DNA of 64,000 bases from Candidatus Aenigmatarchaeota archaeon (GTDB taxonomy: Archaea; Thermoplasmatota; Thermoplasmata; Halarchaeoplasmatales; Halarchaeoplasmataceae). Both the position numbers and the translations under genes were made by a program. Of the stretch, positions 14,725-59,335 are shown one piece after another. The stretch is from contig JBKHKA010000006.1 in assembly GCA_046537845.1 (NCBI GenBank), positions 1,486-65,485 on the forward strand, read 5' to 3'. Under the pieces are notes generated by a model that worked only from the letters and a program-made list of their open reading frames with translations, did not search any database and was not told the origin of the DNA. Within the stretch, counting starts at the first letter, position 1. The number at the start of each line of letters is the position of its first letter.

Positions 14725-14726
14725 CC

Positions 14727-15176: not shown

Positions 15177-15178
15177 CT

Positions 15179-16396: not shown

Positions 16397-16467
16397 CCTT
16401 GTTGACTCCTTCAACAATCCAAAAGAAATAGAAAGGGGATGTAAGTTCCCCTGAATATCTTCTCGAC

Positions 16468-17097: not shown

Positions 17098-17315
17098 CTT
17101 TTTTTTCCTCCATTTTACAATATATTCATTACTTTGCTGTTTTGATGAGGTTCTCAAGGTAAATAAAATTTGTCATCTAGTACTTACCGTTTGCTGTATA
17201 TTACATCGTTTTCCCTCTTGATGATGATCCCTCGCCACATATAACTGCTATATATTTTATCAGCACGACAAAACATAAATACACTTAAATTCAATTAGGA
17301 TTTAGGCGGGAAATC

Positions 17316-20518: not shown

Positions 20519-20728
20519 TACTTATATACGATAGGTTGTTAGGATTTAAAATTTGTCTTTTGAGTGGGAACTTTGATGAGATTTCTACAAAATTTAACAA
20601 AAATATATATATCAATAAGGGCCTTTATATGCAGATGTAGAAACCCGCGGGAAAACATTAAAGTGTAATGACCTATAACCATCTTTAATATATAAGATAA
20701 TGTGTTATCACCAAGGAGGAAGGCTGGA

Positions 20729-23188: not shown

Positions 23189-23215
23189 GATAGAATCTAA
23201 TTTAGTAATTTAGGA

Positions 23216-41928: not shown

Positions 41929-43698
41929 TCAGTTCTGAATTTCTCTCTTTTTCTTCTCTAATACCCTGAATAACTGGTATATCTCTTTTAGAGCCTGGTC
42001 TAGGTCTCCACCGTTCGCTTTCTCTTTTATCTCTTTCAACTCCTGACTGGAGGCAGAGGTTTCCACGCCCAACTCTCTTATCTCCCTCAATTCTTCCTTC
42101 GCCCCCTCGAGTATAGAAGAAAATAAAAGCACTTTCTGGATAGAGACCAATTCCTTGTTCAAAATCTTTAGACTCTCAACTAATTCTCCCGATTTGCCGA
42201 GTTCCAGAGCCTCCTTCACCTCTCTTTTTATATTTTTCAGGTCTAGACCAGTTTCTCTTGCGATCCGCATGTTTTCCCGTATCTTCATCAATCTCTCTTT
42301 GAAATCACTCTCTAATTTTTTTTCCTCCTCCGATGTTGGTATGTTTTTGAGAATTTTTGCTATCTCTAGCGCCCTAGAGTACTCTCCTTCTCTGCACTTT
42401 TCCTCTATCCTCTTCAACTCGCTTTTGAATTCCTCCGCTGCCCCATCTGTTGAAACTTTCCTTCTCGTAGATCCTAAATCAGACAGATGGTCCTCAAGGT
42501 CCTGGAGGTCCTCTACATCCAAAACCAATTCGAGAGATATTTCCAGCGCTTTGTCATATTCGCCTCGTTCCTCATGGCTTGAAAGAATCTTCAATCTTTC
42601 CTCTATGGGAGTCATGTCAATGATCTCATCTTCTATATTTTCTAATACGCCCTTTATGTAAGCCTTATCTTCCTCCAACTCTCCCGGATAACCTTCATGT
42701 CTCTTCCATTTTTTCTCCGGCCCTTCCAATTCTTCATGATGCTCGCGCTCTTCGGTCTTTCTGACTCCTTCAACTTGCTCCGTCTCTTCGACCGGTTCTG
42801 GTCCTTCGATCTCTTCAAATCCTTTCGATCCATCACTCATCTCTACTCCTTCGGACCCTCTCTTTTCTTCGATCCCATCTTCACACTCCCCTTCTACCAG
42901 CTCAACATCGTCGAAAAACTGATCAGCCTTTTTTCCCTCAGAATCCTTCACATCATCTACCTTCAGCCTTTCCTCGCCCGAAGGGAGATCAGTTTTTGTT
43001 ATATCTTCCTCCTCCGGTTCAATCTTGACTTGGGAAGATTTACAGATGGGACATCGATCCATGCCTTCTTTCAAAGGTGTTCCGCATATGGCACACACTC
43101 TTTCTCCCTCATATCCTTCCTTCTCTTTCCCCTCCCGTCCACTCGGCTCTTGATCAGAAAGAGGTTTTCCACATACTGGACATTCGTCCTCCGCGTTCTC
43201 AATAGAGGTCCCGCAGACCGAACAGACCTTTGGCGAGAGTTCCTCGGTCCCTCCTGTCGACTCCCTGATATCAGCTTCTTCCTCCTTATTTTTTTTACCT
43301 CTCTTTGCTCTCTCTTCACATCTGGGACATTCTTCTAGGTCTGCTCCCATCAAAGTTCCACATGTTCCGCATATCTTCAGCCTGCCTTCCTCATCTTTTA
43401 CGTCCTGGATAAAATCATAGATCTTCTCAGCAGTAGTCGAACCAATACCCTGGATAGAGGCGAGTTCTTCCTTCTCCATCCTTTCTAGATCCTTCACCCG
43501 GGACAATCCAGCGATAACCACCTTTTCCGCTCTCGCCATTCCCACGTCCGGTATCCTTTTCAGGTTATCGAGCACCTGTTTCTCTTCCTCGTCAAGATCC
43601 ACCAAGCTGCCGCAGATCTCACACCTATCTACATCAGGTGGATTTTTGCTGCCACAAGCTGGACATTCGAGATGATCTTTTTTCACTTGGTCCACCAA
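41929..43698 (-). CDS. protein with four zinc ribbons, an HhH module, an acidic linker and C-terminal helical-hairpin repeats
   Basis: Four CxxC..CxxC units are present (CPACG..CEICG, CGTCG..CPRCE, CSVCG..CPVCG, CAICG..CPICK). The HhH is IPDVGMARAEKV...IQGIGSTTAEKI. The likely real start is TTG 43698 or GTG 43695, about 30 nt downstream of a TATA (CTTATATATC). The track N-terminus MKFLIFIIFIFF is promoter read-through. Confidence 0.65.
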   Translation of the reverse strand: MVDQVKKDHLECPACGSKNPPDVDRCEICGSLVDLDEEEKQVLDNLKRIPDVGMARAEKVVIAGLSRVKDLERMEKEELASIQGIGSTTAEKIYDFIQDVKDEEGRLKICGTCGTLMGADLEECPRCEERAKRGKKNKEEEADIRESTGGTEELSPKVCSVCGTSIENAEDECPVCGKPLSDQEPSGREGKEKEGYEGERVCAICGTPLKEGMDRCPICKSSQVKIEPEEEDITKTDLPSGEERLKVDDVKDSEGKKADQFFDDVELVEGECEDGIEEKRGSEGVEMSDGSKGFEEIEGPEPVEETEQVEGVRKTEEREHHEELEGPEKKWKRHEGYPGELEEDKAYIKGVLENIEDEIIDMTPIEERLKILSSHEERGEYDKALEISLELVLDVEDLQDLEDHLSDLGSTRRKVSTDGAAEEFKSELKRIEEKCREGEYSRALEIAKILKNIPTSEEEKKLESDFKERLMKIRENMRIARETGLDLKNIKREVKEALELGKSGELVESLKILNKELVSIQKVLLFSSILEGAKEELREIRELGVETSASSQELKEIKEKANGGDLDQALKEIYQLFRVLEKKKREIQN

Positions 43699-43830
43699 GT
43701 CGGTTGTAATTATAGCTTTAAAAGATATATAAGTTTTGTGAAAAAATATGAAAATTATAAATATTAAGAACTTCATCCCCGTTAAAAGGAAATTAATTTA
43801 ATATAGGAGTGTATTAGGGGATGAGATAAG
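43699..43830. promoter_or_regulatory. AT-rich divergent promoter region shared by the zinc-ribbon/HhH gene and the IleRS-like gene
   Basis: TATA-like elements face both ways: CTTATATATC on the minus strand at 43724-43733 and AATTTAATATAGG on the plus strand at about 43795-43807. Each lies about 25-35 nt from its start codon. This rests on pattern only. Confidence 0.35.
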
Positions 43831-46800
43831 ATGGGAAATATTCCAAATTTCAACCCTCGGGAGATGGAGGAAAAGACTCTGGAGAGATTGGAATCCAACG
43901 ATATCGATGAGAAAGTAAAGGATTCGAGGAAAGGCGGCAGGAACTATTATTCTGTTTACCCTCCTTTATCGATCAAGGACGACCTCAATTGGGATGATCT
44001 GTATAAGATCTTCTTGTATGACGTTTGGAACCGATTCAAAAGCATGGAAACTTTCAATGTCAGGCATGGCCTGGGGTATGATCCTTACAATCTGAGAGTG
44101 GAAAGGTCTGTCTTTGAAGACCAAGAAGATGAAAGGAAACTGTTGAGGGGCGTGGATGATGAAATTTGGGATGAGATAATAGATGAGCTGAATGAAAAAT
44201 CCGATGAGTTCAAAAACGAGATGACGGACCAACTTCGTGACTTTGGACTGTGGAGAAATCTAGAATTCGAATACGATACCAGGACAGAATCTTTTGTGGA
44301 TTCTGTCTGGTGGGCTGTAAAAGAGTTGATAGAAAAGGACCTCCTCATGAAGGAGGAAAAACCGGTCACCTGGTGTCCAAGATGTAAATCACCAGTGGTG
44401 GATACAGAGACACTTCAAAAGGAGCAGACCAAAGAGAAGACTCTGTTGAAAATACCGACATCAGGAGGAAAGGAAAGGTACTTTTTGGTAGAAGTAGAAG
44501 ATCCTTGGATGCTGCCTTCCAGCATGACCCTAGTAGCTGACCCAGAAGAGACCTATGCCGTGGTAAGGTATCTCTCACAGGAAGAGAAAGCCATTCAGCT
44601 CCTCATGAGGGAAGATAAAGTAGAAGAGATGATGGAGAAGGGGGGGGTAGAAGAATATGAAGTCGTCAATACGGTAGAGGGTGAAGATCTGGAAGGGCTG
44701 AGATTCAAGTATCCGCTTTTTGATAAAGTATCCGCTCATACAGACCAGGAAGGGAAATACATCCATAAGATAATGTGCTCAGAAAAGATAGAAGGGGAAG
44801 GAACAGGTCTAGTTTTACTCACCCCCCCACATGACGAAAAACATTGGAAGATAGCCAAAGAGAACGGCTTGAGTATCTACAACCCAGTGGCTAAAAACGG
44901 ACACTATGATTCCGGGGTCAGGGAGAACAAATATTCAGGACTTTCCGCCCCCCAGAGCGATCAGATAATCTTAGATGACCTAGAATCCAAAGATCTGATT
45001 TTCTCGAGGAAAGAGGGAAAAAAAGAAGTCAAATTCTGCGCGGCCTGCCTAAACAAAGTAGTTAAGATACCCCATAGAGAATGGTTCTTCAACGTATCGA
45101 GGAAAGAGGATACCGTCAAAAATATACTTGAAGATGTAGATCTCATCCCTCCTGAAGAAGATATAGACCTGAGAGATTGGATAGTGACCAGGAAGAAGCG
45201 TTGGGGGATATCTTTTCCCCGATGGCGATGTAACTGCGGAAACTCTTTCGTGCCCTCCGATCGATCCGATCTGGCAAATAATTCAGATTATAACGAAGAG
45301 GATCCAACCACTCCTGACATAATCTCTGATGTGAAGATAGAATGTGAAGAGTGCGGAGAGATGATGGAGTGGGAAGGGAAGATATTGAATCCTATCTTCA
45401 TACAGGCCTCTTCACCCTGGGCGCAGCTCGGTTACCCCACTAAAGAAAAAGAATATCAATCGTGGTGGCCTGGCGAGATATTCATAAGTAAAAATGCAAA
45501 AAGAGACGACCTTCTCACCGCAACTGTGACGCTTTCAGGAGCTCTCTTCGAAGAAAACTCTCTTAAAAACATGTTGATGCAGGGTCCTATAGTCAGCGAG
45601 ATCGATTACAAGGACGTTAGAGGTTTAACGGAGAAGCAGGGTTATGATTCTCTGAGATTATACATGCTTTCAGGGGATCCGCCCTGGAAAACCCGGAAGA
45701 TAGAGGGAGAAGATCTTCAGTACACGCATCCTCTAGTGAGAGTTCTGTGGAACTTGAAGAGCTTTTTAAAGGATCATCTGGAAAAACACGAGGCCGAACC
45801 CGGTGAAACCACTCTCGAGTTCCTCAAACAAAACTTGGATTTCGAGGACGAATGGATACTGTCTTGTGTAGAATCAACAAAAAGCAGGGTGAAAGAATCA
45901 TATGAAAGAGCCCGATACGATGAGGCTATAGAGGAGCTTAAGAGTCTGGTGATGGAGGATTTGGCCCAATGGTATTTCAGCCGTGCGAAGGCCAGACTTG
46001 AAGGAAAGGATGACGAAGATGTTATCTCATCTATCTTGAAGGTGCTTTACGAATCCATGATGTCGGCTGCCAAGATGATCGTTCCGATCTCACCCTTCAT
46101 CGCTGAGAATATATACGATGATCTGGACGGGAAAGAAGAATCCGTATTTCTGTGCGATTGGCCCGAGGCAAATCAGCTCTTACAGAATCAGGAATTAGAA
46201 GGAAATATGGAAGAGATCAAAAATATAGTTGGAGATATAAAAGGTATCAAGCGGAAGCACGGGATACCCGAAAAATGGCCTTTGAAACACATCGTATATA
46301 AAGGGAAAAGCAGCGAGTCCATGAACGTCGTCAAAAGGTTCGGAGAGATGATCAAAGAGAAAGCGAAAGTCGAAAACATAGAAACCGTGGAACCGGATGA
46401 AGAATGGGATGAAAAGATACTAGAGGTATATCCAAATAAGGAGGCCATCGGAAAGGCATACCAGCAGTGGAAAAGCAGGATCGCCACCATGCTCAACCAA
46501 AGGAAACCTGAAGAGATAAAAGAAGGCGTCGAAAGGGGTGATTTCACCATAGGTATCCAAGGACAGATAATCGAGATAAAGCCGGAGATGGTCACTTTCG
46601 AAGCAAAGCTCCCAGAAGGTTTTGAGGAGATCACTCGAGAGGAACAGGAGATCTACGTGGACCTCGGTATATATGCTGACATCTGGGATGAGATGATGGC
46701 GAAAGAAACAATCCTAAGATTGAAGAGCATGCGGGAAGATTTTGATCTGGAGGAGCAGGATGAAATTGAAGCCTATATAGAAGCCTCTGAAGAAGTGGCT

Positions 46801-47805
46801 GAAGCTCTAGACGTACACAGAGACATGATAGGGAAAGAGGCAAACGTAAGAAAACTATCCATCAATAGAGAAGAGGAGGAAGAGCTTGAATACGTATATG
46901 AATGGAATATCAACGAAGAGGATGTCGAAATCGGGATCATCCCTCTTTATAAAACAAAACTTTTGGAATACTACCAGACCTTTTCCGGCATAGACCAAGA
47001 GATCGCCGAGAACTTGTACAAGGGAGGATTCACCTCTATGGAATCTCTAGCCAACGCTTCTGCTTCAGAGTTATCTGATATAGAGGGGATAAAAAGATCC
47101 CTCGCTAGGAGTATGATCCAGGCCATGGAGGAGGAGACGAAAGAAGTCGAAGAAGGTGGAGAGGAAGTCGAAAGGATGAAACCTAGCCTGGAAGAAAGAG
47201 AGAAACAGGTGGCAGAAAGGACGGAAACGGAGGTCGAAGGCGAAGAGTCCCGAGAAAGCTATCCCTCCGAGGGTCGAAAGGCATCTGAAGGTTCAGCCGA
47301 AGAGGAAACACCAGAAGAGGAAGAAAAAAAGACTTTGCCAGAAGGTATCTCAAGGAGCTCGACTTATCTTATAGATGAAAGAAATTCTGATGAAGAATCG
47401 TCTTTCGAACTGTTCAAAGAGATCTTAGAAACTGGTGAAAAAGGGCTCTGCGTGACGCGAGATTATCCTGATAAGGTCAGAGAGAAATATGGGCTAGAAG
47501 ATGTAGAGATCGTATGGCTCTCCAATGTTGATAGAGAGGATGTCATAAGGCCGAAGAGCCTGGAAAAGTTCAGCTTGACTATAGAGAATTTCCTGACCAA
47601 GAAGAAGGGAGTCATCCTGCTGAACGGTCTCGAATATTTGATCACTAACAACGATTTCAGAACCGTTTTACATCTGATCCAGTCTATAAAAGATCAGGTC
47701 GCCATCAACAAATCGATCATGATGATCCCGGTGAACCCGGCGACACTGGAAGATAACCAGATGGATCTTTTGACCGGGGAAGTTGATAAGGTCATAGAGC
47801 CATGA
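43831..47805 (+). CDS. IleRS-like class Ia aminoacyl-tRNA-synthetase paralog with degenerate catalytic motifs, fused to an (HhH)2-like module and a C-terminal DUF835-like domain
   Basis: It is collinear with IleRS (FNPREMEEK..., VTWCPRCKSPVVDTE, DWIVTRKKRWGISFPRW, GYDSLRLYMLSG). The HIGH position reads PPLSIKDDLNWDD and the KMSKS position reads DYKDVRG. The C-terminus is EGIKRSLARSMI (HhH) followed by GLCVTRDYPDKVREKYGLEDVEIVWLSNVD... (DUF835-like). Confidence 0.8.
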   Translation: MGNIPNFNPREMEEKTLERLESNDIDEKVKDSRKGGRNYYSVYPPLSIKDDLNWDDLYKIFLYDVWNRFKSMETFNVRHGLGYDPYNLRVERSVFEDQEDERKLLRGVDDEIWDEIIDELNEKSDEFKNEMTDQLRDFGLWRNLEFEYDTRTESFVDSVWWAVKELIEKDLLMKEEKPVTWCPRCKSPVVDTETLQKEQTKEKTLLKIPTSGGKERYFLVEVEDPWMLPSSMTLVADPEETYAVVRYLSQEEKAIQLLMREDKVEEMMEKGGVEEYEVVNTVEGEDLEGLRFKYPLFDKVSAHTDQEGKYIHKIMCSEKIEGEGTGLVLLTPPHDEKHWKIAKENGLSIYNPVAKNGHYDSGVRENKYSGLSAPQSDQIILDDLESKDLIFSRKEGKKEVKFCAACLNKVVKIPHREWFFNVSRKEDTVKNILEDVDLIPPEEDIDLRDWIVTRKKRWGISFPRWRCNCGNSFVPSDRSDLANNSDYNEEDPTTPDIISDVKIECEECGEMMEWEGKILNPIFIQASSPWAQLGYPTKEKEYQSWWPGEIFISKNAKRDDLLTATVTLSGALFEENSLKNMLMQGPIVSEIDYKDVRGLTEKQGYDSLRLYMLSGDPPWKTRKIEGEDLQYTHPLVRVLWNLKSFLKDHLEKHEAEPGETTLEFLKQNLDFEDEWILSCVESTKSRVKESYERARYDEAIEELKSLVMEDLAQWYFSRAKARLEGKDDEDVISSILKVLYESMMSAAKMIVPISPFIAENIYDDLDGKEESVFLCDWPEANQLLQNQELEGNMEEIKNIVGDIKGIKRKHGIPEKWPLKHIVYKGKSSESMNVVKRFGEMIKEKAKVENIETVEPDEEWDEKILEVYPNKEAIGKAYQQWKSRIATMLNQRKPEEIKEGVERGDFTIGIQGQIIEIKPEMVTFEAKLPEGFEEITREEQEIYVDLGIYADIWDEMMAKETILRLKSMREDFDLEEQDEIEAYIEASEEVAEALDVHRDMIGKEANVRKLSINREEEEELEYVYEWNINEEDVEIGIIPLYKTKLLEYYQTFSGIDQEIAENLYKGGFTSMESLANASASELSDIEGIKRSLARSMIQAMEEETKEVEEGGEEVERMKPSLEEREKQVAERTETEVEGEESRESYPSEGRKASEGSAEEETPEEEEKKTLPEGISRSSTYLIDERNSDEESSFELFKEILETGEKGLCVTRDYPDKVREKYGLEDVEIVWLSNVDREDVIRPKSLEKFSLTIENFLTKKKGVILLNGLEYLITNNDFRTVLHLIQSIKDQVAINKSIMMIPVNPATLEDNQMDLLTGEVDKVIEP

Positions 47806-47834
47806 AGTTCTTGGCGTTTTAGAAGGTGTTTCCG

Positions 47835-48731
47835 ATGGATATCGCTATCATAGGTCCTGGAGCCATGGGTACTTTTCTTGCCGGTCTACTGGCTAAAGAG
47901 AACAAAGTGACTTTATTCGGTCGTCGGGAGCATCAAGATATCAATAAGGTGAAGATAAAAGGTAAGACCGAACTGGAGATAGGAGTAGATTATGCCACGG
48001 ACTCCAGTAAATTGGCGGATGTAGAACTCGTCGTCATCTGCACTAAAGCCTTCGATACTGAAGAGGCGATCAAGAGTGTCGTCGATCACATACCTTCGAA
48101 GTGCGACATACTCTCTCTACAGAACGGATTGAAAAATGAAGAGATCATCGAGGACAATGTAGGCGAAGATCGCACTATAGGCGGGATCACCAGCCACGGT
48201 GTGACTTATCTAGGGATCGGAAAGGTGAGACATGCAGGGGAGGGGGAAACGGTGATAGGGGCATACCCTCACGGGGATCGAGCGGAGATAAAAAAGGTCG
48301 CCTCTACATTGAGCGAGGCTGGGATGAGAACGAAAATCAGCGATAACATACTGGGACACATATGGAAAAAAGTGATTATCAATGCTGGTATCAATCCGAT
48401 TACCGCATTATTAAGGATCAAAAACGGCTTTCTGTTGGAAGATAAGGATCTTCTTGCCCTGTTGAAAGAGGCTGTGAAAGAAGGTACAGAAGTGGCCGAA
48501 AGATATACCGATCTGCCTTTAGAGGACCTATTCGAGAAGACGAAAAGGGTGGCAGAGAGCACCGCTGAAAACCGATCCAGCATGCTCCAAGATATCCTGA
48601 ACAACAAGAGAACCGAAATCGACCAGATCAACGGGGCGGTGGTGGAAAAAGCTGACGAGTGCGGTATTTCCGTTCCGGTGAATAAAAGTCTCTATCGACT
48701 GGTCAGAGGGATGGAAAGTACTTATCTCTAG
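47835..48731 (+). CDS. panE: 2-dehydropantoate 2-reductase (ketopantoate reductase family)
   Basis: MDIAIIGPGAMGTFLAGLLAK (Rossmann fold) and an ApbA C-terminal domain with SSMLQDI and TEIDQINGAV. Confidence 0.85.
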   Translation: MDIAIIGPGAMGTFLAGLLAKENKVTLFGRREHQDINKVKIKGKTELEIGVDYATDSSKLADVELVVICTKAFDTEEAIKSVVDHIPSKCDILSLQNGLKNEEIIEDNVGEDRTIGGITSHGVTYLGIGKVRHAGEGETVIGAYPHGDRAEIKKVASTLSEAGMRTKISDNILGHIWKKVIINAGINPITALLRIKNGFLLEDKDLLALLKEAVKEGTEVAERYTDLPLEDLFEKTKRVAESTAENRSSMLQDILNNKRTEIDQINGAVVEKADECGISVPVNKSLYRLVRGMESTYL

Positions 48732-49954
48732 ATCCTTTCGCCAAGAAGATAAACGTCTTCCGCCTTCTTGATATTCACCTTAACCCGTTCACCGATGAGG
48801 TCTTCATCCTCGTTCTTTAAAACCACTACCTTGTAATTGTCCATCCTAGCCTTCAGCGAATCGTTCTTTCCTTTTTCCAATACTAGTACGGTTGTCTCCT
48901 TTCCTACGTACTCTCGGTTCAACTCTCTGCTTATCTGGAATCTCAGCTTGGTCATCTCTTTGGATCTCCTCTTCTTTTCTCTCGAATGAACCTTATTGTC
49001 CATCTCTGCGGCCCTAGTCCCTGGTCTAGGACTGAACCTGGTCACGTTCACTATATCCGGTTTCGCTTGTTCGATCACCTTTTTGGTCCTCTCAAAATCC
49101 TCTTCGGTCTCTTCAGGGAATCCCACTATCACGTCAGTAGAGAGAGTGAGTTCCGGGAACTCCTCTCTGAATTCTTTTGTCAGTTCTTTCCATCCATCCA
49201 CATCGTAATTTCTGTTCATCTTTTTCAGTATGGGATCGGACCCGGATTGTAGAGGAAGGTGGAGAAAGGTGTATATCCTCTCGTCATGCATCAATTCCAT
49301 GAAATCGTCCTTGATCTCCTTCAAGGCATCGACGTTCATCATCCCCACTCTTATGCGGTAATCTCCTTCTATATCCAGCAGCTGTTCGAGGAGTTCGTTA
49401 AGGTCGGTGGAGATATCTTTACCGTAAAGAGCCGTATCCTGACAGGTCAACCTGATCTCTTTAGCCGAGGAGGAGACGAGTTCTTTGAAACGCTTTTTTA
49501 TCCTTTCGGGCGGTCTGCTGGTCAAACTGCCTCGAGCGATCTTGGTTATACAGTAGGTGCAGTTTCCATAACATCCGGAAGCTATGGGTATGGTACCTAT
49601 GATATTGTCTTCCATTGGCGAAGAAGTCATCTTCACCTCTTGTGGCTGTATGAAGTCTAGCAGTGACTCTAGATAAGCGAAGTTATCTTTGGATCTTCCA
49701 GAACTTCCGTTAGATATGGAGGACAAACACCCTGAGACCATCACCTTAGAAACTTCTTTCTGCAGCTCTTCGATCCTGCGCTTCATCCTCTTCTCGGTTT
49801 TCTGGATCACCACACACGTCCCGATCAGAGCCTGGTCCGCATCCTCCAATGAATCCACTCTCCGGTGACCCTTTTCTTTCAGAGATTCGGCTATCATCTC
49901 CGTTTCTCCCTGATTCATGGTGCATCCGTAGGATTCCACGTAGAACTTCATCAA
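48728..49954 (-). CDS. radical-SAM methylthiotransferase, MiaB/MtaB (CDKAL1-like) family
   Basis: It has the UPF0004 N-domain (FYVESYGCTMNQGETE), the radical-SAM CxxxCxxC motif (GCYGNCTYCITKIARG) and a C-terminal TRAM-like region. Confidence 0.88.
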   Translation of the reverse strand: MMKFYVESYGCTMNQGETEMIAESLKEKGHRRVDSLEDADQALIGTCVVIQKTEKRMKRRIEELQKEVSKVMVSGCLSSISNGSSGRSKDNFAYLESLLDFIQPQEVKMTSSPMEDNIIGTIPIASGCYGNCTYCITKIARGSLTSRPPERIKKRFKELVSSSAKEIRLTCQDTALYGKDISTDLNELLEQLLDIEGDYRIRVGMMNVDALKEIKDDFMELMHDERIYTFLHLPLQSGSDPILKKMNRNYDVDGWKELTKEFREEFPELTLSTDVIVGFPEETEEDFERTKKVIEQAKPDIVNVTRFSPRPGTRAAEMDNKVHSREKKRRSKEMTKLRFQISRELNREYVGKETTVLVLEKGKNDSLKARMDNYKVVVLKNEDEDLIGERVKVNIKKAEDVYLLGERI

Positions 49955-50043: not shown

Positions 50044-51411
50044 ATGCGGGTCCTACATCTTTCGGAAAAAGCGATAAAAAATCATACTGAAAGGGAATTA
50101 AGAGATCTGGATAGATATTTTGATCCTGATCTCACTTTGGCTTCGGGTTTTGGAAAGAAAAGTAGGAAAAAAAAGGAAGTAGAGAAAGCCAGTTCTTACG
50201 AGACCATATACCTTGAAGACGTCGACGGTTACGAACAGAGGAATTTAGGTGATGAGTCTCTTATAGTGGTAAGGGACGAAGAATCGGTAAAAGAAGCTGT
50301 AAAAGAAAAAGCGTCATTCAAGGGTAAAAGAACTCTAGTCTTCACGGACTTGATAAAGGAGGAGATAGATCAGTCAAGTTTTGAATACAGGTTGATGAAC
50401 ACCTCCATCATAGATAGACTTTCTGATGAGGTGGACAACTTCCACGTATTCTCGACTGAGATGGAAGCCGGAAAGAAACAATCCCATAAAAGCCGATACA
50501 TCTATGGGCTGGGACCGTGTTTCGACAGAGAGGGCGTAAAGATACCTTTTCTTTCAAGCGGGAAAGGTTTTAAAGTGAAGACATTTCCCGCGGAGCGGGT
50601 AGGCCTTCTAGCGATACCTGACCTCGGAAAAAAATTTTCCAACGTTTTGAGAAGAAAAGGTATAGAGGACAGAGCCGCCTTAAAAGAATGCGAACCCGAA
50701 GAACTGATGAAGCAGGAAGGAGTAGGACCCTATCGGTGCACCAAGTGGATCTCTTCCGCAGAAGCAATAGAGGAAGGAAGTGTATACAGGATACAGGAGA
50801 ACGATCTGGAAGGTAAGCACCGGATATATATCGATATAGAGACCGATTCATTAAGACCTAAGATAGTCTGGCATATCGGGCTTTACGACGATGTAGAAGA
50901 GAAATACCTCTCCTTCCTTGAAAAGGAACCCGATAAGAAGGGAAGGATCATCAAGAGATTCGGCAGTTACTTGGAAAAACATGGTGAACCGGAAACTGTG
51001 CTCCTAGCCTGGTACGGGTCGGGTTTCGATTTCAAGGTCTTAGACGACTTCTTTGAAAAGTACGGACAGGAATTTCTAAAAACCTGGCGTCGAACAGAAA
51101 AGGTGGACCTGATGAGATGGGTGAAAAAGCACGCCGTCACCTCCTGCAGGACCTCAAAACTCGATGATGTGGCAGGATGTTTGGGATATGAAAGGGGAAA
51201 GGAGAGCATGGAACTCAGCGGAAAAGAAGTTGCCCGCATCTATTCAGATCACATGATCGGAAGAGGCGGAGAGCCTGACTGGACTTCTCTGAAAGAATAT
51301 GCCAAAGACGATGTGATATCTTTGAAATTTATCTATGACGAGATCAGTCAAGCTCCCATGAAGTACGATCTGAAAGAGATGAAAAAAAGATACAGGAGAA
51401 ACTGTTTTTAA
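50044..51411 (+). CDS. predicted RNase H-fold (DnaQ/YprB-like) exonuclease with an internal HhH module
   Basis: IYIDIETDSL (ExoI-like DxE), LLAWYGSGFDFKVL (ExoII-like) and YAKDDVISL (ExoIII-like). It is preceded by IPDLGKKFSNVLRRKGIEDRAAL...EGVGPYRCTKWI. Confidence 0.65.
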   Translation: MRVLHLSEKAIKNHTERELRDLDRYFDPDLTLASGFGKKSRKKKEVEKASSYETIYLEDVDGYEQRNLGDESLIVVRDEESVKEAVKEKASFKGKRTLVFTDLIKEEIDQSSFEYRLMNTSIIDRLSDEVDNFHVFSTEMEAGKKQSHKSRYIYGLGPCFDREGVKIPFLSSGKGFKVKTFPAERVGLLAIPDLGKKFSNVLRRKGIEDRAALKECEPEELMKQEGVGPYRCTKWISSAEAIEEGSVYRIQENDLEGKHRIYIDIETDSLRPKIVWHIGLYDDVEEKYLSFLEKEPDKKGRIIKRFGSYLEKHGEPETVLLAWYGSGFDFKVLDDFFEKYGQEFLKTWRRTEKVDLMRWVKKHAVTSCRTSKLDDVAGCLGYERGKESMELSGKEVARIYSDHMIGRGGEPDWTSLKEYAKDDVISLKFIYDEISQAPMKYDLKEMKKRYRRNCF

Positions 51412-51432: not shown

Positions 51433-52161
51433 TCAAAATTTCCAGATTACCTCGTCACCCGGCTCGGAATAATGGAATATCTCCGTTTTTGCGTCCCAAC
51501 CCTCCTCGACCAGATCGTCGATCCACTCTTCCGATCCAAAGGTGTGTATCGGCACGAAATAAGTGGGTTTCACTCGCTCGATGAATTCTATCGGGCCCGC
51601 CCAACTGGGCAAACGCTCATCCATGTTCGAAAAGGCGATATCGATCTTTTCTTTTTCCAATGATCTCACGACTTCATCGAAGACCCTGACGTGATCTTCT
51701 CTCTTCTTTTCACTCCACTCAGGCCAGTCCCATTTAGCAAGGTCCCCTCCAAAATAGACCTTCAGACCTGCGAATCTGATGAGAAAAGCCACCCCTGCAT
51801 CGTTGCTCTCGAAGGTTCTTATCTGCATATCGTCAAGGGAATAAGTCGAATCCGGATTAGCTTCGAGTAAATCTCCATTCAGCTTAGGAAAGAGAGCGGT
51901 ATACACATCGCTTGAGAGTATGAAATGCGTCTTTTCAGCGTCTGAAGAGAATTTGACCACGTCTGGAGAAAAATGGTCGCCGTGGGCGTGTGAAATGAAT
52001 ACGTAGAGCTCCTTTCCCCTCAATTGTGTCTTTAATCCCTCTTCCGCTCTTTTATCTACCCTACTGCCAGGATAATCATATAGAAACACCTTCTTATCTA
52101 CTTCCAAGGAGAAACAACTATGGTACAGGTAAGTTATCTTCACTTCCATCTTTTTCACCAT
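51433..52161 (-). CDS. metallo-beta-lactamase-fold hydrolase
   Basis: ITYLYHSCFSLE and the motif FISHAHGDHF. It is a COG2220-like small MBL. Confidence 0.75.
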   Translation of the reverse strand: MVKKMEVKITYLYHSCFSLEVDKKVFLYDYPGSRVDKRAEEGLKTQLRGKELYVFISHAHGDHFSPDVVKFSSDAEKTHFILSSDVYTALFPKLNGDLLEANPDSTYSLDDMQIRTFESNDAGVAFLIRFAGLKVYFGGDLAKWDWPEWSEKKREDHVRVFDEVVRSLEKEKIDIAFSNMDERLPSWAGPIEFIERVKPTYFVPIHTFGSEEWIDDLVEEGWDAKTEIFHYSEPGDEVIWKF

Positions 52162-52287
52162 GTGTTAAGAGCAAAGCTGTATATCTATACCTCTCGCAGG
52201 TTTTTACTTTTTTGTTTCCTTATAGCCAAGTTTCACACCTCCCTCTCTTCTCAACCTTTAAGTAAAGCTTTTCACATCTTGAAGACG

Positions 52288-53328
52288 ATGCTTGAAGACT
52301 TATATGAGGCCATGAGTGAGCTTTCACAAACTCCAGAAGAGTGGGGTGAACCTTCCTTCAGCCAGGAACAGTATTACGAGCCGGTTCCGCTGTCCGAGAA
52401 CAATCTAGATCACTATGACGTCAAAGAAGACAAAAAGACCGTCTGCTGTATCGATGGAGGTAACAACAAGATATACGAAACTCCTACGGACAGTATACAC
52501 CTCATCAAGGTCTATTTCAACCTGTTCAGGGGGAAAAGAAGGATGAAGAATTTTGATCCGTTCACAGCCATACTGGTTTCAAGGTCCGAAGGAGAAAAAG
52601 TCGAATGTGAGTTGAGGCCGCAGAACGATGTTTTGCCCCTGGAAAAGACCTCCTATGTTCTCAATGAAGATGAGCTGGAAAACGGCAGTCCAGTGAGTTC
52701 CGGTCATACCATCAGAAAGTATATCGAATGGAAAGCTCTTCAGTACATGGCGGAGGAACTTCTAGCTCCAAAAGATATAGTTGTGAGGGACGGGGTATTG
52801 CAGACCACTGTGGAAAGGGAGAGAAGATACGCTGAAGAAGCATATGATAGGGTGGAAAAAAACGGGGTCGTCCTGGTGGGGATAGCCAAGACCAGCTCTT
52901 TGAAAACCACCACGGGTTATCCTTTGGTCGCCTCTATACAATCCATCGCCCGCGAAGCAGGTAAAGGTGAAGAACGGTGGTATTATCATCCAGTAGCTCA
53001 CACCTCACATCCGGACCACAAAGGAGAGATGTACGTGGTGAAATATCATCCTTCTTCTCAGTATGCGTTCCGGACCGAATTTTACAGGGAAAACCATGAG
53101 CAGATGGAAAAGAAAGAGGTGGAAGAAGTCTTAGGTCATCTTGCATTTCAGGCCCAGGACCCTATATTTCTAGGTTATCCCTACGGTCTGGTGGACGTTG
53201 ACAAAAGGGCAAGAGTAACCGACGAGGAAGTCGAGTACCTCAGGAACATGGGAGACAATAAGATGAGCAAAACCTTTAGGGACAAAGTGAATGCGGTCAA
53301 CGCCCACGATAGGTTGAGCGAGATATGA
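52288..53328 (+). CDS. nurA: NurA-like nuclease
   Basis: CCIDGGNN, IVVRDGVLQ, VGIAKTSSL and FLGYPYGLVDVDKRARV match NurA catalytic and structural motifs as I recall them. It lies directly upstream of herA. The ATG at 52288 is chosen. The track start at 52120 overlaps the divergent MBL gene. Confidence 0.7.
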   Translation: MLEDLYEAMSELSQTPEEWGEPSFSQEQYYEPVPLSENNLDHYDVKEDKKTVCCIDGGNNKIYETPTDSIHLIKVYFNLFRGKRRMKNFDPFTAILVSRSEGEKVECELRPQNDVLPLEKTSYVLNEDELENGSPVSSGHTIRKYIEWKALQYMAEELLAPKDIVVRDGVLQTTVERERRYAEEAYDRVEKNGVVLVGIAKTSSLKTTTGYPLVASIQSIAREAGKGEERWYYHPVAHTSHPDHKGEMYVVKYHPSSQYAFRTEFYRENHEQMEKKEVEEVLGHLAFQAQDPIFLGYPYGLVDVDKRARVTDEEVEYLRNMGDNKMSKTFRDKVNAVNAHDRLSEI

Positions 53329-53360
53329 AACTATAGAATATAAAGATAGGAGACGATATC

Positions 53361-54863
53361 ATGCCTATAGGTCAGATAGTAGGAGGAGAGTACGGCGAAG
53401 TTTTGATCAGACAGAAGAGTGGGAAGACTATAGAGATAGGAGACCTTTTAGCAATAGACGACCTCATCCTTCAGGTGCTGGACCTAGAATACGGTTCCCT
53501 TTTAGAACAGACCGATATAGAGAGGATGAGCGGGATGGAATTAGAGGGGTATGAAGAAACGGCACTGATGGAAGAAGAGATAAGGAACTATATCTACGCC
53601 AAGGCTAAACCTCTGGTGAGGATCAAAGATGGAAAACCCAGGATACCCAAGATATTACCTCCCTTTTTCGGAAGTCTGGACCGAGTGGATAAAGAAGATT
53701 TTGAATTTTTGGAAGAGCCGGAGAACAGCCTTTACCTCGGTAGAGTCAGGAGCGGCAGTCAGGAGTTAGATGTCCCTATCCATATAAACGGTAAAAAGGC
53801 ACTCTCACATCATATATTGATACCCGCAACCACCGGTAGAGGGAAAAGCAATCTCGTGAAGGTGATGCTCTGGAATCTGATCCCAAAGGATTACGCCGGC
53901 CTTATCATAATCGATCCTCACGATGAATACTACGGGAGGAACGAACTGGGGGCAAAAGATCATCCCGAAGCTGGAAAGAAGGTCGATTATTATTCTACCA
54001 ACCCTCCTCCAGGTGGTTACCACCTGCGGATCAATCTTTCGATCTTAAGACCCTGGAATCTGAAAGGCGTGGTGGAACTCTCCGAGGCCCAGAACCAGGC
54101 GCTCTACGTTTACTATGCCCACCATAGTAAGAATTGGTTAGAAGCTCTATTGACCTCGGACGCCGAAGAAGTTGGCAGGTACGGGATACAAGAGACCACT
54201 TTGGACGCATTAAAGCGGAAGCTAAGGCTCACTTTCGATCTCGAAGTGAAGAACGGAGAAGTGAGACCCATGGGCAATATATTCGTCAATAAAGGTTCGG
54301 AGAGCTTGGTTAAAGATATAGCAAAAGCTGTTGAAGAAGGAAAAAAAGTCATCCTCGATACCAGTTCTCTGCCGCAGAACAAAGAGCTCCTGATAGCCAG
54401 CATAATCACTGACAGAGTCTTTAAAAATTACAAAGAATACAAAGAGAAGGGCGAACTGGACAAAAAGCCCACCGCCGCTATAGTCATAGAGGAAGCTCCT
54501 AGAGTTCTGGGCGAGAGGGCGGGGAGGAACGTCTTCCACCAGATAGCCAGGGAAGGAAGGAAATTCAGGACTGGCCTTATAGCGATCACGCAGCTTTCTA
54601 GTATGATACCTAGAGAGATACTGGCGAACATGAACACGAAGATCATACTGGGAAACGAGATGAAGAGTGAGAGGGACGCGATAATAGGAAGTGCCGCTCA
54701 AGACCTCTCCAAAGACAGCAAGAACATCGCCAGCCTCGACAAAGGTGAGGCCATCGTGAGCAGCATCTTCACCAAATTTGCAGTACCTATCAAGATCGAT
54801 CTGTTCGATGATCTGGTCGAAGAAGAAAAGGGGAGCGAAAAACAACTGGAATTTTTCGGCTGA
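53361..54863 (+). CDS. herA: HerA-type (DUF87/FtsK-HerA superfamily) hexameric ATPase
   Basis: There is an N-terminal HAS-barrel-like segment, Walker [11 protein letters not shown] and Walker [11 protein letters not shown], then [20 protein letters not shown]. Confidence 0.88.
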
Positions 54864-55712: not shown

Positions 55713-58010
55713 TCAGTCTGAAAGCTTTTCTGGGTGGAACCTTTCTATCACATCCACGTATTCCTCCACCTGATCCATCGAAAGGTCCGTGATGGAGGCG
55801 ATCTCTTTTTTCGAGTAACCGTCCTTCATCAACCGCTGTACTCGGAGTGGATCCTTTATCTTGTCCTTCTGGACTTTCTCCTTTTGCTTCTCCAGCTTCT
55901 TCTCTTTCTTCTTTAGAGATTTGTTCCTTCGTTTTACCTTCTCTATCCTTTCAGATAGTTTCTCTTCTTTCTCTTTTAATTTTTCATTTCTCTGTTTCAA
56001 CTTCTTTCTACGAGTGGATACTTTCTCTTTTTGCTTCTTGAGCTCCTTTCTCAACTCGGTGATCTCCTCCGCCCTATTATCCAATCTTTCTTCTCTCTCG
56101 TCGAGCTGAGCTTTTCTCTCCGTGAACCTCTCTTTTTTCTGTTCGAGTTCCTCTTCATCCTCCTTGATCTTCTGTTCTCTTCGCTGTAATTCAGTTCTCT
56201 TCTCTTCTATATTGTCCCTTTCTTCCTCCAACCTTTCTTTTTCACTCTCGATACGTTCACTCTCGGTCTCTATCTTTTCGAGTTTTTGTTTGACTTCCTC
56301 CTTTTCATTTTCTATCCTCTCCAACTTTTCGTCAACATATTTTTCCCTTTTCTCGAGATCGTCTTCCCAGGTATCTAATTCCTTCTGTCTTTCTTCCAGC
56401 TCTGATTCCCATTCATTCAAATCTTTCTCCTTGCTGGATATCTCTTCTTCTCTAGCGTCCAAATCCTCTTCGGTTTCCTGGAGTTCATCCCCCAACTCCT
56501 CTAACTCTGATCTTTTTTTGACGATCATCCTTTCTTTTTCACCGAGATTTTCTTCTAATTCTTCTAGTTCTTCCTCTTTTTCTTCGATGTTCTTTCTAGC
56601 CCGTCTGAGATCCTTTAGTTTACTCTCCATATCTTCCTCCCGTTCTTTCAGTTTTTCTTCCCTCTCTTCAAGGACCTCTTCCTCCTCCTCAAGTTCTTTT
56701 GATTTCTGATCCAGCTCTTCTTCCCATGTGGTCAGTTCAGCATCTTTGTCCAACAGATCCTTCTCCAAAGCTTCCAATCTTTCTTCCTTCTTATCGACCT
56801 CCTCTAGAGTCTCTTCGGCCTCTTCCATGAACTCTGCCTTTTCGGCGACCTGCTCCTCTCTTTTTTCGAGTTCTTTTTCCTTCTCCCTTACGTCTCTGTC
56901 TTTTTCTTGTATCTCTTTTATCTTGTCTTGAAGTTTTTTATACTGTTTATTTAATTTTCCTTCAAAGTTGTTAAGATATTCTTCCTTTTTCTCTAATATA
57001 TCCTCCTTCTTTTGCAGATGTTCCTCCTTTGACTCTTCTTCGGATCTTGTTGGGGTCTCTATCTCATCCATCTCCTCTATCTTCTCCTCTCCCTCCGATC
57101 CAATTCTATCAGGAGGCGGGGGTAGTGTAGTTTCCTCATTCGGCTCTGTTTTTTCTTCATCCATATCCGCATCTTCTTTTTCAGAACCATCTCTTGTTTC
57201 TGAGGAAGTTCTAGATGGCATAGCATCGTCCGGATCCATATTCAAAAATCTATCTTCCTCTTTTTCCATAGATCCATCAACAAAATCGGGTGGTGGAGGT
57301 GGATATTCCTGAGATCTATTTACTTTCTTTTTTCGAGTGTTATTTTTTTCCTCGTCCTTTGCCGACATGAGTTCCGGAGGGGGCGGTGGAACGTCCGAAT
57401 CGATGTCGATGGCGGGGCTAGTATCATCATGAGGCCCTCCTCCTCCTCCCTCCGAAGAGAGCTCCGCTTCACCCTCTAGTTTTTCTTCGCTTTCTTCTCT
57501 CAACTCTTCATCTCCCTCTTCCAAACTAGACCCACAGTAAACGCAGTAAGAATCTCTGTCAGAGTTCAGCTGACCGCATCTAGGACACACAACAGTTCCT
57601 TTTTTTTTCTCTTCAGCCGACGGCGAGGCAGTATCTGATTCGATTTCGACTTCGGAACCAGTATCCTCAGGAACTTCTTCAGGCGTCTCTTCTTCAAAAT
57701 TTTCTACATCCTCAGGTGGTGAAGTAGGATTTTCTGATCCTTCAAGCTCATCAGGCTCATCTCCGTTCTCACTGATTTTTTCCTCGGCCAATCCCTTAAG
57801 ATCCTCTGCCTTTTTCGACGTGACATTCCGTATGTCTTCCAGATAGGACACATCTACTTCTATGATCTTCTCAAAATCATCCACTCCGGAATCGTATATA
57901 TTTTCCGCTGTGGCATGACCGATACCATTTACCGTCATCAGGGCATCGAGAAATTCTTCCTTTGGCACGGCCTCGTCTTTATTTTCTTCATCATTACGTT
58001 CATCATCCAT
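55713..58010 (-). CDS. HhH / zinc-ribbon / polyproline / very long E-K coiled-coil protein with C-terminal HTH-like tail
   Basis: The N-terminus is VNGIGHATAENIYDSGV...SKKAEDL (HhH). It has one zinc ribbon (CPRCG..CVYCG) and three PPPP(P) motifs. About 400 aa of E/K/L heptads follow. The C-terminus is GYSKKEIASITDLSMDQVEEYV (sigma-r4/LuxR-like HTH). Confidence 0.75.
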   Translation of the reverse strand: MDDERNDEENKDEAVPKEEFLDALMTVNGIGHATAENIYDSGVDDFEKIIEVDVSYLEDIRNVTSKKAEDLKGLAEEKISENGDEPDELEGSENPTSPPEDVENFEEETPEEVPEDTGSEVEIESDTASPSAEEKKKGTVVCPRCGQLNSDRDSYCVYCGSSLEEGDEELREESEEKLEGEAELSSEGGGGGPHDDTSPAIDIDSDVPPPPPELMSAKDEEKNNTRKKKVNRSQEYPPPPPDFVDGSMEKEEDRFLNMDPDDAMPSRTSSETRDGSEKEDADMDEEKTEPNEETTLPPPPDRIGSEGEEKIEEMDEIETPTRSEEESKEEHLQKKEDILEKKEEYLNNFEGKLNKQYKKLQDKIKEIQEKDRDVREKEKELEKREEQVAEKAEFMEEAEETLEEVDKKEERLEALEKDLLDKDAELTTWEEELDQKSKELEEEEEVLEEREEKLKEREEDMESKLKDLRRARKNIEEKEEELEELEENLGEKERMIVKKRSELEELGDELQETEEDLDAREEEISSKEKDLNEWESELEERQKELDTWEDDLEKREKYVDEKLERIENEKEEVKQKLEKIETESERIESEKERLEEERDNIEEKRTELQRREQKIKEDEEELEQKKERFTERKAQLDEREERLDNRAEEITELRKELKKQKEKVSTRRKKLKQRNEKLKEKEEKLSERIEKVKRRNKSLKKKEKKLEKQKEKVQKDKIKDPLRVQRLMKDGYSKKEIASITDLSMDQVEEYVDVIERFHPEKLSD

Positions 58011-58384: not shown

Positions 58385-59335
58385 TCATTTCCATCTTCGT
58401 GGATACTCACCTGAGGGTGAAAAGACCCTATCCGTCTTGACGATCAAACCCTCGTCTTTCTCAACGACCTCCTCCGCATTGTACAGGGCTTCTCCCACGG
58501 CTAAACCTTCGCCTTTCACTGATAAGATAGCGACTCGATCTCTCGAAGAAAATCCGTCCATCTTCACGATCCCCGGCGCTGCTAGGTCCGCACCGTTCAA
58601 TATGGATCCCGCAGCGGTATCCTTGACTACGATCTTTGGAAAGATGTCTAACGCCCTTTCATAAGGCAGTAGGACGTCTTTCAAATTTTCTTCATCGCCC
58701 TCCTTGTAGTATTCATACGCATCTCTGACCTCCTGGAGAAGTACCGTCTCTTCCTCCGTGAACCCTCCTGCTTCGATCCTCCTGAGTTCCATCATGTGAG
58801 CACCGAGACCCATGGCTTTTCCGACGTCTTTACATAGGGTTCGGATATAGGTTCCAGACTCACACCTCACTTTCAAAAGATATTCTCTTCTCCTGCTATC
58901 TAAGAGTTCTATGGCGTAGATCTCTCTCTTTCTCCTTCTCCTCTTGACCCCTGAACGCAGCGGCGGTATTTGGTATATCTCTCCCATAAAATCCTCAAGC
59001 ACTTCCTTGACTTCACTCTCCTCAACATTCCCATGAAATTTCATAGCCGCCACATATTCCTTTGGAGCTGAATGTAGCAGATCAAGGACTCTAACAGTAT
59101 TCCCCAGACCCATGGGTAAAACGCCCGTCACGTTAGGATCGAGAGTTCCGCTATGAGCCGCTTTGATTTCGAATATCTTTTTAACCCATGCAGAAACTTG
59201 GTGGCTGGAAGGACCTTCGGGTTTATCGACGATCATCAACGATCGTGGTATCGCCTCTTCAACGGTCCTCCTGAAAGGGTAAGTTCCCCATTCAGACACG
59301 GTATCCACTTCATCGATCACGTACTCGCATTTCAT
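58385..59335 (-). CDS. cbf5: tRNA/rRNA pseudouridine synthase Cbf5 (archaeal TruB) with PUA domain
   Basis: GPSSHQVSAWVKKIF, AHSGTLDPNVTGVLPMGLG (catalytic Asp) and a C-terminal PUA domain (GSILNGADLAAPGIV). Confidence 0.93.
   Translation of the reverse strand: MKCEYVIDEVDTVSEWGTYPFRRTVEEAIPRSLMIVDKPEGPSSHQVSAWVKKIFEIKAAHSGTLDPNVTGVLPMGLGNTVRVLDLLHSAPKEYVAAMKFHGNVEESEVKEVLEDFMGEIYQIPPLRSGVKRRRRKREIYAIELLDSRRREYLLKVRCESGTYIRTLCKDVGKAMGLGAHMMELRRIEAGGFTEEETVLLQEVRDAYEYYKEGDEENLKDVLLPYERALDIFPKIVVKDTAAGSILNGADLAAPGIVKMDGFSSRDRVAILSVKGEGLAVGEALYNAEEVVEKDEGLIVKTDRVFSPSGEYPRRWK

Follow-up and report, generated by a model that had tools for sequence, protein, structure and literature searches.

The window analyzed here, a 64-kb stretch of contig JBKHKA010000006.1, carries a gene whose product is very probably a conserved but catalytically dead derivative of isoleucyl-tRNA synthetase (IleRS). 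The gene occupies window positions 43831-47805 on the forward strand as an uninterrupted reading frame of 1324 amino acids plus stop, in which an IleRS body with degenerate motifs is followed by a tandem helix-hairpin-helix (HhH)2 domain, an acidic linker and a terminal DUF835 domain. The signatures of aminoacylation and editing are lost from a body that keeps the overall IleRS fold and evolves under purifying selection, and the degenerate gene is found in 25 GTDB species of soda- and salt-lake Thermoplasmata (Halarchaeoplasmatales/PWKY01, including Ca. Natronoplasma). A 99% identical protein from Ca. Natronoplasma sp. (GCA_048620515.1, contig JBMCFD010000002.1) carries the database name "DUF835 domain-containing protein." Natronoplasma is a member of Ca. 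Halarchaeoplasmatales (Haloplasmatales, GTDB PWKY01), "salt-in" Thermoplasmata represented only by metagenome-assembled genomes of soda and salt lakes. The arrangement of the gene and its domains is as follows, in window coordinates.

43831-47805, + strand: IleRS-like gene with degenerate IleRS body, (HhH)2, acidic linker and DUF835/inactivated KaiC-like (iKaiC) domain (Pfam, NCBIfam and PDB matches)
43831-44415, + strand: Rossmann-fold N-terminal half (aa 1-195), degenerate, with 25% of the active-invariant positions left and a confident AlphaFold2 (AF2) fold
44416-45150, + strand: homolog of the CP1 editing domain (aa 196-440) with degenerate motifs (alignments)
45151-45705, + strand: Rossmann C-terminal half (aa 441-625; alignments)
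45706-46335, + strand: helical anticodon-binding domain (aa 626-835; Pfam Anticodon_1)
46336-46938, + strand: C-terminal tRNA-binding domain of type-2/archaeal IleRS, DUF5915 (aa 836-1036), aligning to 8c8v/8c9d and to yeast IleRS-tRNA complexes
46939-47145, + strand: (HhH)2 domain, HHH_5 (aa 1037-1105; Pfam and AF2)
47146-47340, + strand: acidic disordered linker (aa 1106-1170), with a predicted local distance difference test score (pLDDT) of 32-39 in AF2 and a within-clade identity of 0.30
47341-47802, + strand: DUF835/inactivated KaiC-RecA-like domain (aa 1171-1324; Pfam, AF2 and Foldseek)

The collinearity of the first ~1000 residues with IleRS, asserted in an earlier note made on this DNA from its letters, is borne out by the NCBIfam model TIGR00392 (ileS), which matches the window protein end to end (E = 5e-96), and by the type-2 IleRS 8c9d, its best PDB relative (E = 7e-72). 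The TIGR00392 score of 322.7 bits falls below the curated equivalog cutoff of 621.4, at about half its value. Pfam assigns tRNA-synt_1 to aa 21-613, Anticodon_1 to aa 673-820 (102 bits), DUF5915 to aa 839-1036, HHH_5 to aa 1049-1098 and DUF835 to aa 1186-1317. The AF2 model of aa 1-1036 has a pLDDT of 86 and a predicted template modeling score of 0.78, and the comparison of such a model with IleRS-tRNA complexes that had been proposed returns 8c9d (E = 3.5e-70 over 1073 columns), 8wnd, 8z1p and 1ile in Foldseek, IleRS-tRNA complexes included. The overall IleRS fold, with Zn knuckles, anticodon-binding domain and C-terminal tRNA-binding domain, is thus present according to AF2, Foldseek and Pfam.

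The catalytic and editing motifs were scored in alignments of 17 and 81 sequences, with both MAFFT and HMMER used for the KMSKS region, and four sites are clearly defined.

43960-43998, + strand: former HIGH site (aa 44-56), PPLSIKDDLNWDD in place of GPPYTTGxIHxGT (alignments)
44074-44091, + strand: GYDPYN in place of GxDMHG (aa 82-87), with D84 kept and the His-Gly gone (alignments)
44494-44523, + strand: VEDPWMLPSS in place of TTTPWTLPAN, the Thr-rich CP1 peptide (aa 222-231; alignments)
45595-45624, + strand: site of the KMSKS-loop deletion (aa 589-598; HMMER and MAFFT alignments)

The motif strings and coordinates quoted in the earlier note proved correct throughout in both alignments, and its claim that every recognizable aminoacylation and editing signature has gone agrees with the profile alignments. 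The HIGH position reads YPPLSIKDDLNWDD, which departs from the archaeal form GPPYxxGxIHxG[TH]; HIGH is absent from 25 of 25 members of the degenerate clade and present in all 53 active loci that span the region, two more active loci being truncated at the N terminus. The segment DYKDVRG (aa 592-598, nt 45604-45624) adjoins a gap of 8-10 columns where the active enzymes carry xMSKS, and in the HMMER alignment to 8c9d the deletion falls over MSKSKGNAL. Three further blocks, which that note had not listed, are also degenerate, with the PGHGxED editing motif reading PPHDEKH, DWCISRQRYWG reading DWIVTRKKRWG and DQTRGWF (the DQxRGWF block) reading AKRDDLL. No other register in the profile or multiple alignments brings back HIGH or KMSKS. 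The Zn-knuckle Cys pairs C182/C185, C403/C406, C467/C469 and C505/C508 are all kept in the degenerate clade, and the former Ile pocket still has P45 and D84. As shown by these replacements, the window protein is predicted to carry out neither class I adenylate chemistry nor CP1 editing as currently understood. A role as a trans-editing factor is ruled out by the lost editing motifs.

The distribution of the gene was scanned with DUF835-derived patterns in one genome per GTDB species, giving 210 species with a relative, from which the best 80 loci were taken. In 25 of these 80 loci HIGH, GxDxHG, TTTPWT, PGHG and DQxRGWF are absent and the KMSKS loop is deleted; these proteins are 33-75% identical to the window protein and come from the Kulunda soda lakes, Great Salt Lake and similar hypersaline samples. 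The remaining 55 loci are motif-intact (an xMHKS variant being accepted) and belong to Methanomassiliicoccales and other Thermoplasmata. The two sets are well separated by TIGR00392, with 951-972 bits for intact tail-bearing relatives and 293-345 bits for the degenerate proteins (cutoff 621.4), and by genome GC, which is 0.50-0.70 for motif-intact fusions versus 0.36-0.46 for degenerate ones. Motif-intact fusions of the form IleRS-(HhH/Zn-ribbon/TPR)-DUF835 are located on several closed chromosomes (CP070732, CP070736, CP070748, CP070767, OY760646 and OY970070); examples of such fusions are L024-L081, P0017-P0019 and P0300-P0310, with P0017, P0018, L027 and L032 among them. In an exhaustive search the closest IleRS representatives are often 1400-2300 amino acids long, the longest fusion reaching 2329 (P0307), and all five long relatives examined consist of an IleRS body, a variable middle (HhH, Zn ribbon, TPR) and a terminal DUF835 as the constant element. 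The tails of degenerate and intact fusions are homologous, with DUF835 about 50% identical.

In a neighbor-joining tree of 1028 body columns, for which canonical archaeal IleRS served as outgroup, the 24 degenerate sequences of full length, namely the window protein and those of 23 GTDB loci, group together as a single clade; its stem is long, and it arises from within the tail-bearing IleRS. That they had a single origin is independently supported by the KMSKS-loop deletion, which is common to all degenerate sequences, and by a PanE/ApbA gene downstream in all 25 degenerate GTDB loci. The picture of a dead scaffold recruited into a new multidomain protein, as first drawn, has to be reversed, since the fusion is intact in 55 of 80 loci and the degenerate clade is nested among these fused relatives, indicating that the IleRS-HhH-DUF835 fusion came first and catalysis was lost later. 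As judged from the sequences, IleRS widely takes this fused form in this part of the Thermoplasmata, with every catalytic signature kept, and the window protein is a degenerate derivative of the fusion. The earlier statement that no IleRS paralog of this architecture has been described holds insofar as our literature search found no paper on the intact-motif IleRS-HhH-DUF835 fusion or the degenerate form, nor any report of an IleRS-derived pseudoenzyme or of a synthetase fused to a RadA/KaiC-like module; the architecture itself, however, is not rare, occurring in up to 210 GTDB species, and database entries for it already exist under names such as "DUF835 domain-containing protein" and "class I tRNA ligase family protein."

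Two groups of variants were seen among the relatives. L067 and L069 (JAGLME01 and JAUVHO01) are otherwise intact with weakened motifs (TSTPWT/TSRPWT, EQTAGWF/EQTDGWF and PLSKS) and may be variants with altered editing or activity. P0016 (1012 amino acids, "class I tRNA ligase family protein") stops before the tail, and L010, with the same N terminus, has a continuous 1293-amino acid open reading frame with the tail; the shortness of P0016 probably comes from a frameshift or gene-calling truncation in one assembly.

The ratio of non-synonymous to synonymous divergence (dN/dS) is 0.13 between the window gene and L001 (19 synonymous and 10 non-synonymous differences), 0.08 between L002 and L003 (dS 1.40, dN 0.11) and 0.06-0.10 for the ex-catalytic Rossmann C-terminal half alone. 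Overall the degenerate genes lie at about 0.05-0.13, indicating purifying selection. Within the degenerate clade the most conserved part is DUF835, with a mean identity of 0.72, and the catalytic halves are at 0.44-0.49; in the active proteins the catalytic halves, at 0.65-0.66, are the best-conserved part. The constraint has shifted from these halves to the tail. Retention was measured as the share of positions at least 90% invariant in active enzymes that are kept in the degenerate clade. It is lowest, at 25-30%, in the Rossmann and CP1 domains, where mostly Trp, Gly and Pro are left together with the Cys of the four Zn-knuckle pairs; it rises to 38% for the anticodon-binding domain and 50% for the C-terminal tRNA-binding domain, and DUF835 reaches 69%. 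A further 39 positions are newly conserved in the degenerate clade only, including W66, D157, R216, K517 and Q532. The loss of catalytic signatures with purifying selection nevertheless kept would place the window protein among non-catalytic aminoacyl-tRNA synthetase paralogs, or pseudo-synthetases. A decaying pseudogene or an assembly or annotation artifact, which the loss of all catalytic motifs might by itself suggest, is effectively refuted by intact orthologs in 25 species from independent studies and lakes, by conserved synteny and by the dN/dS of 0.05-0.13; the frame of 1324 codons is also uninterrupted and the AF2 fold confident, leaving this explanation almost no probability. By its dN/dS the gene encodes a maintained protein and is not decaying; the phylogenetic survey that had been recommended gave the 25 degenerate and 55 intact loci among the 80.

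The most constant feature outside the reading frame lies immediately 3′ of it.

47826-48731, + strand: PanE/ApbA-family ketopantoate reductase gene, 20 nt 3′ of the IleRS-like gene

In each of the 25 degenerate loci this gene directly follows the IleRS-like one on the same strand after a gap of 20-58 nt, and the conserved adjacency makes co-transcription with the IleRS-like gene likely. Near the degenerate gene a MiaB-like radical-SAM gene is found in 18 of 25 loci and an Lpd-like gene in 16 of 25, and none of the PanE, MiaB-like and Lpd-like neighbors occurs at any of the 55 active loci. A tie through PanE to branched-chain keto-acid or pantoate metabolism is a matter of speculation. The adjacency is one of several observations that would fit an IleRS scaffold with a new catalytic activity, either an SbzA-like aminoacyl-tRNA-dependent transferase or another ligase, possibly tied to PanE/ApbA. 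SbzA provides a precedent as an IleRS homolog repurposed as an Ile-tRNA-dependent transferase (PMC9437257), and the 39 clade-specific conserved positions, the retention of P45 and D84 in the former Ile pocket and the strong purifying selection on the ex-catalytic domains point in the same direction. However, the two degenerate subclades differ at the former active site (PPLSIKDDLNWDD versus TPHMLHDTYSLMD), which speaks against a shared new catalytic center there, the ATP-binding signatures are gone, and conservation peaks in the tail and not in the pocket. On balance a new activity of this kind appears improbable.

If the window protein does not charge tRNA, Ile-tRNA synthesis in the clade would presumably be supplied by another IleRS. 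No second IleRS-like gene is present in the window or in 81 Thermoplasmata loci. Several candidates were considered and not accepted. P0020, the closest canonical match to the window protein, belongs to MSBL1/Hadarchaeia. P0023 is acidic and tail-less with intact motifs (TIGR00392 1000 bits), and its sole close relative is P0248 (GCA_964436705.1), followed by Thermococci at 55%; the pair has a GC of 0.34-0.36 like the low-GC subclade and a tetranucleotide correlation of 0.75-0.78, no better than a Nanohaloarchaeal control, and could not be assigned to the clade; GCA_964436705.1 is not among the degenerate-bearing assemblies. P0344/L090 is acidic and tail-less with a true HIGH, a KMSSS variant and a GC of 0.458 (window 0.457), and is a weak candidate that could not be assigned, its tetranucleotide r to the window's subclade being 0.77-0.81 compared with a calibrated 0.84-0.91. 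Of further acidic candidates from the exhaustive search with the P0017 body, P0345 is from Nanohaloarchaea, P0348/P0450 are from Nanohalobium according to the clusters of their neighbors, and P0466/L089 is unrelated, with ArlI only 44% identical. The ThrRS encoded in the window itself (2547-4439, + strand) is of the normal archaeal type and has the editing domain specific to archaea, suggesting that the other synthetases of the genome look canonical.

That no other IleRS was located for the clade genomes, together with the intact fold and strong purifying selection, is what would be expected of a still working IleRS with a non-canonical active site. Such an enzyme would have to function with both class I signatures lost and the KMSKS loop physically deleted, with DQxRGWF and GxDxHG stripped of the residues that contact amino acid and adenylate, with replacements that differ between subclades and with a TIGR00392 score at half of the cutoff; moreover, the second IleRS was sought within ±10 kb of hits and not genome-wide. 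We consider a working enzyme very unlikely.

The HhH and DUF835 modules that had been recognized by eye in the tail are present by Pfam, AF2 and Foldseek, whereas the "two acidic linkers" of the earlier note are one continuous acidic disordered region (aa ~1106-1170) with an AF2 pLDDT below 40. HHH_5 (PF14520) scores 35.9 bits against a cutoff of 27, and the (HhH)2 domain is modeled with five helices (pLDDT about 85) and in profile searches resembles the N-terminal domain of RadA and the C-terminal repeat of NusA. DUF835 (PF05763) scores 118.3 bits against a cutoff of 33.1, covers profile positions 3-135 of 136 and is modeled as a compact α/β domain with a pLDDT of about 88-93 (tail modeled as aa 1037-1324). 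Its best Foldseek match is FlaH/ArlH (4yds), followed by KaiC (3k0c) and RecA (2zrn). Walker A (GxxxxGK[ST]) is absent from DUF835, where the window protein sequence reads YLIDERNSDEESSFELF after strand 1, and a canonical Walker B is not seen, the corresponding position being VILLNGLEYL. To our knowledge no DUF835 protein has an established function. Under the label iKaiC the domain has been cataloged among the output domains of archaeal response regulators as an inactivated KaiC-like module, for example in REC-DUF835 proteins (PMC5847659). The ArlH/FlaH match suggests ArlH-type ATPases as candidate partners of the iKaiC domain.

Over ~300 columns the tail in its entirety can be aligned with full-length RadA/Rad51 (HhH N-terminal domain plus ATPase core), and it aligns with RAD51 paralog complexes too; this resemblance raises the alternative of a DNA-acting mediator of RadA-paralog type, or a DNA tether, in which the IleRS body would be inert mass or an oligomerization platform. 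An NCBIfam match to the RadA N-terminal HhH domain and the surroundings in the window, which is rich in HhH/Zn-ribbon proteins and has a NurA-HerA pair and an HhH-RNaseH-like exonuclease within 7 kb, are in keeping with this. The TIGR02236 (RadA) match is, however, limited to the N-terminal HhH region (24.8 bits, cutoff 361), there is no Walker A, and the FxxA polymerization motif is absent from the linker, which has no Phe at all in aa 1106-1170. The clade does not share the DNA-repair neighbors (RNaseH-HhH is found in 1 of 25 degenerate loci, NurA and HerA in 0 of 25), an identical type of tail is found on active IleRS in many lineages, pointing to a translation-related role, and a 1036-amino acid body at a dN/dS of ~0.06-0.1 is unlikely to be inert. 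A primary role on DNA is therefore doubtful, with only a small share of the probability.

A second DUF835 protein of 488 amino acids is encoded in the window at 4450-5916 (- strand), with an N-terminal coiled-coil/unknown region, an acidic Glu-rich linker and a C-terminal DUF835 (75 bits in Pfam) that is 23% identical to that of the IleRS-like tail (E = 3e-12). The layout of a linker followed by a terminal iKaiC is common to both proteins. An archaellum cluster occupies 10159-17157 (- strand), with archaellin at 16468-17157, an ArlD/E-like gene at 15179-16489, the KaiC-like ArlH at 13521-14240, ArlI at 11820-13481 and ArlJ at 10159-11823; next to it come a 1462-amino acid Ig-like/CARDB surface protein, at 5891-10279 (- strand), and then the 488-amino acid DUF835 protein.

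The explanation we favor, with moderate confidence, is a conserved pseudoenzyme that keeps a tRNA-binding scaffold together with a partner-binding function of iKaiC. An ancestral Thermoplasmata-specific fusion would have had two functions, aminoacylation and one dependent on the tail. The aminoacylation and editing sites would have been destroyed once, in the ancestor of the haloalkaliphilic clade, with aminoacylation passing to another IleRS in Halarchaeoplasmatales and the fused gene keeping only its second, non-catalytic function. The whole body is kept, with the tRNA-binding domains retained better than the catalytic ones, and the most economical reading of this is a second function that depends on tRNA(Ile), or on another RNA, being docked on the body. 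In the specific mechanism proposed, to which we give slightly less than an even chance, the body would dock, but not charge, tRNA(Ile) or a similar RNA, the (HhH)2 domain would add salt-tolerant, non-specific nucleic-acid affinity, and the iKaiC domain, devoid of Walker A and held on a flexible acidic tether, would bind a partner of the KaiC/RadA family, so that the whole assembly might couple tRNA status to an archaeal KaiC-type regulatory assembly or scaffold it. HhH-DNA binding is known to be salt-tolerant.

Several observations weigh against this explanation. Just 38-50% of the conserved positions survive in the tRNA-binding domains, and partner binding by DUF835 is drawn from fold and domain-architecture analogy. 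No KaiC-like partner is tied to the gene by conserved synteny in the 25 degenerate loci, and the neighbor that is conserved, the PanE/ApbA reductase, is not explained by the model. No canonical IleRS was found for any degenerate-clade genome within ±10 kb around the hits, so that its co-existence is inferred. The neighbor-joining tree is without support values, and through long-branch effects monophyly may look stronger in it than it is.

In a further elaboration the protein would sense tRNA charging or amino-acid status, with uncharged tRNA(Ile) bound by the dead body and the iKaiC domain signaling to a KaiC-family ATPase hub; we hold this to be unlikely. If true, it would be a prokaryotic analogue of the HisRS-like domain of GCN2 and give DUF835 its first function, and the motif-intact Methanomassiliicoccales fusions would be bifunctional enzyme-sensors. 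Apart from any particular mechanism, the two forms of the fusion constitute a natural experiment, the same architecture being motif-intact in many Thermoplasmata and reduced to the scaffold in a whole haloalkaliphilic order. Their comparison separates the second function of the fusion from aminoacylation, and suggests that the second function alone suffices to hold a 1324-amino acid protein under strong selection. Two questions become testable, namely the role of DUF835/iKaiC and whether archaeal KaiC-type signaling is tied to translation or tRNA status. For annotation, genome-completeness estimates and metabolic reconstructions should leave the degenerate proteins out of their IleRS counts.

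Upstream, the IleRS-like gene is separated from a divergent gene by a 54-nt intergenic region containing one further feature.

43797-43805, + strand: putative archaeal promoter, TATA-like TTTAATATA, ~25-30 nt 5′ of the ATG, predicted on sequence grounds

The divergent gene (41929-43776, - strand) encodes a 615-amino acid HhH protein whose Zn-ribbon plus HhH composition mirrors the middle segments of the active tails P0018 and P0308. It is one of four further HhH proteins in the 64 kb, the others lying at 55713-58010 (- strand), 17316-18776 (+ strand) and 50044-51411 (+ strand). Two of the four (615 and 765 amino acids) have Zn ribbons, HhH and long acidic coiled-coil regions; of the remaining two, one has a C-terminal HhH and the other combines HhH with an RNase_H_2-type exonuclease. 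HhH proteins appear to have expanded in this halophile. The NurA-HerA pair (DNA end-resection nuclease and helicase) is encoded at 52120-54863 (+ strand); membership of the IleRS-like gene in a DNA-repair operon was ruled out, the DNA-repair neighbors not being conserved across the clade. A MiaB/MtaB-like methylthiotransferase (UPF0004-radical SAM-TRAM; 48728-49954, - strand) is convergent with PanE and represents the MiaB-like neighbor seen in 18 of 25 degenerate loci, and a second tRNA-modification gene, for a Cbf5/TruB-PUA pseudouridine synthase, is farther downstream (58385-59335, - strand). There are no tRNA genes in the window. At 20702-25675 an 828-amino acid multi-PAS/GAF protein without a recognizable output domain adjoins an 819-amino acid AAA_16-TPR (STAND-like) protein.

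Several known systems come close to the window protein. With the archaeal/type-2 IleRS (TIGR00392; 8c9d, 8wnd and 1ile) it is collinear over ~1036 residues and shares domains and fold; it differs in lacking HIGH, KMSKS, the substrate contacts and the editing motifs and in adding the HhH-linker-DUF835 tail. The fusions of Methanomassiliicoccales and other Thermoplasmata have the same domain order and a homologous tail but keep all motifs, have no PanE neighbor and belong to genomes of higher GC. With DUF835/iKaiC proteins such as REC-DUF835 the window protein has in common a domain that passes the PF05763 threshold and has a RecA/KaiC-like α/β fold without a P-loop; there the input is a receiver domain, whereas in the window protein its place is taken by the IleRS-like body plus HhH. 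RadA/Rad51 shares the order of N-terminal (HhH)2, linker and RecA-fold core, although in the window protein a long, disordered and acidic linker leads to a core cut to ~150 amino acids, and Walker A/B and FxxA are missing.

Dead synthetase relatives are known elsewhere, HisZ being one. The HisRS-like domain of GCN2 is a dead synthetase module that is fused to a signaling module and acts through its binding of uncharged tRNA. The proposed mechanism follows it as a functional analogy, with no homology implied, and GCN2 differs in its class II HisRS origin, its eukaryotic occurrence and its protein-kinase output, in place of which an inactivated KaiC-like domain is found here. In archaea, LeuRS-I (Sulfolobaceae) and LeuRS2 (Halobacteria) are class Ia paralogs that bind tRNA without normal charging and have a disrupted CP1 and a divergent acidic C terminus, and the IleRS duplicates listed in the same review of synthetase paralogs are IleRS2 and SbzA only (PMC9437257). 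These LeuRS paralogs resemble the window protein, in which tRNA binding is putative, as archaeal copies of class Ia synthetases that persist without charging normally. They differ in that LeuRS-I still makes adenylate and keeps an active site that is gone from the window protein, and in their LeuRS parentage, compared with an IleRS origin and a RadA/KaiC-like tail. As a non-catalytic synthetase paralog the window protein is therefore of a known kind, whereas its origin and its tail are unusual and informative.

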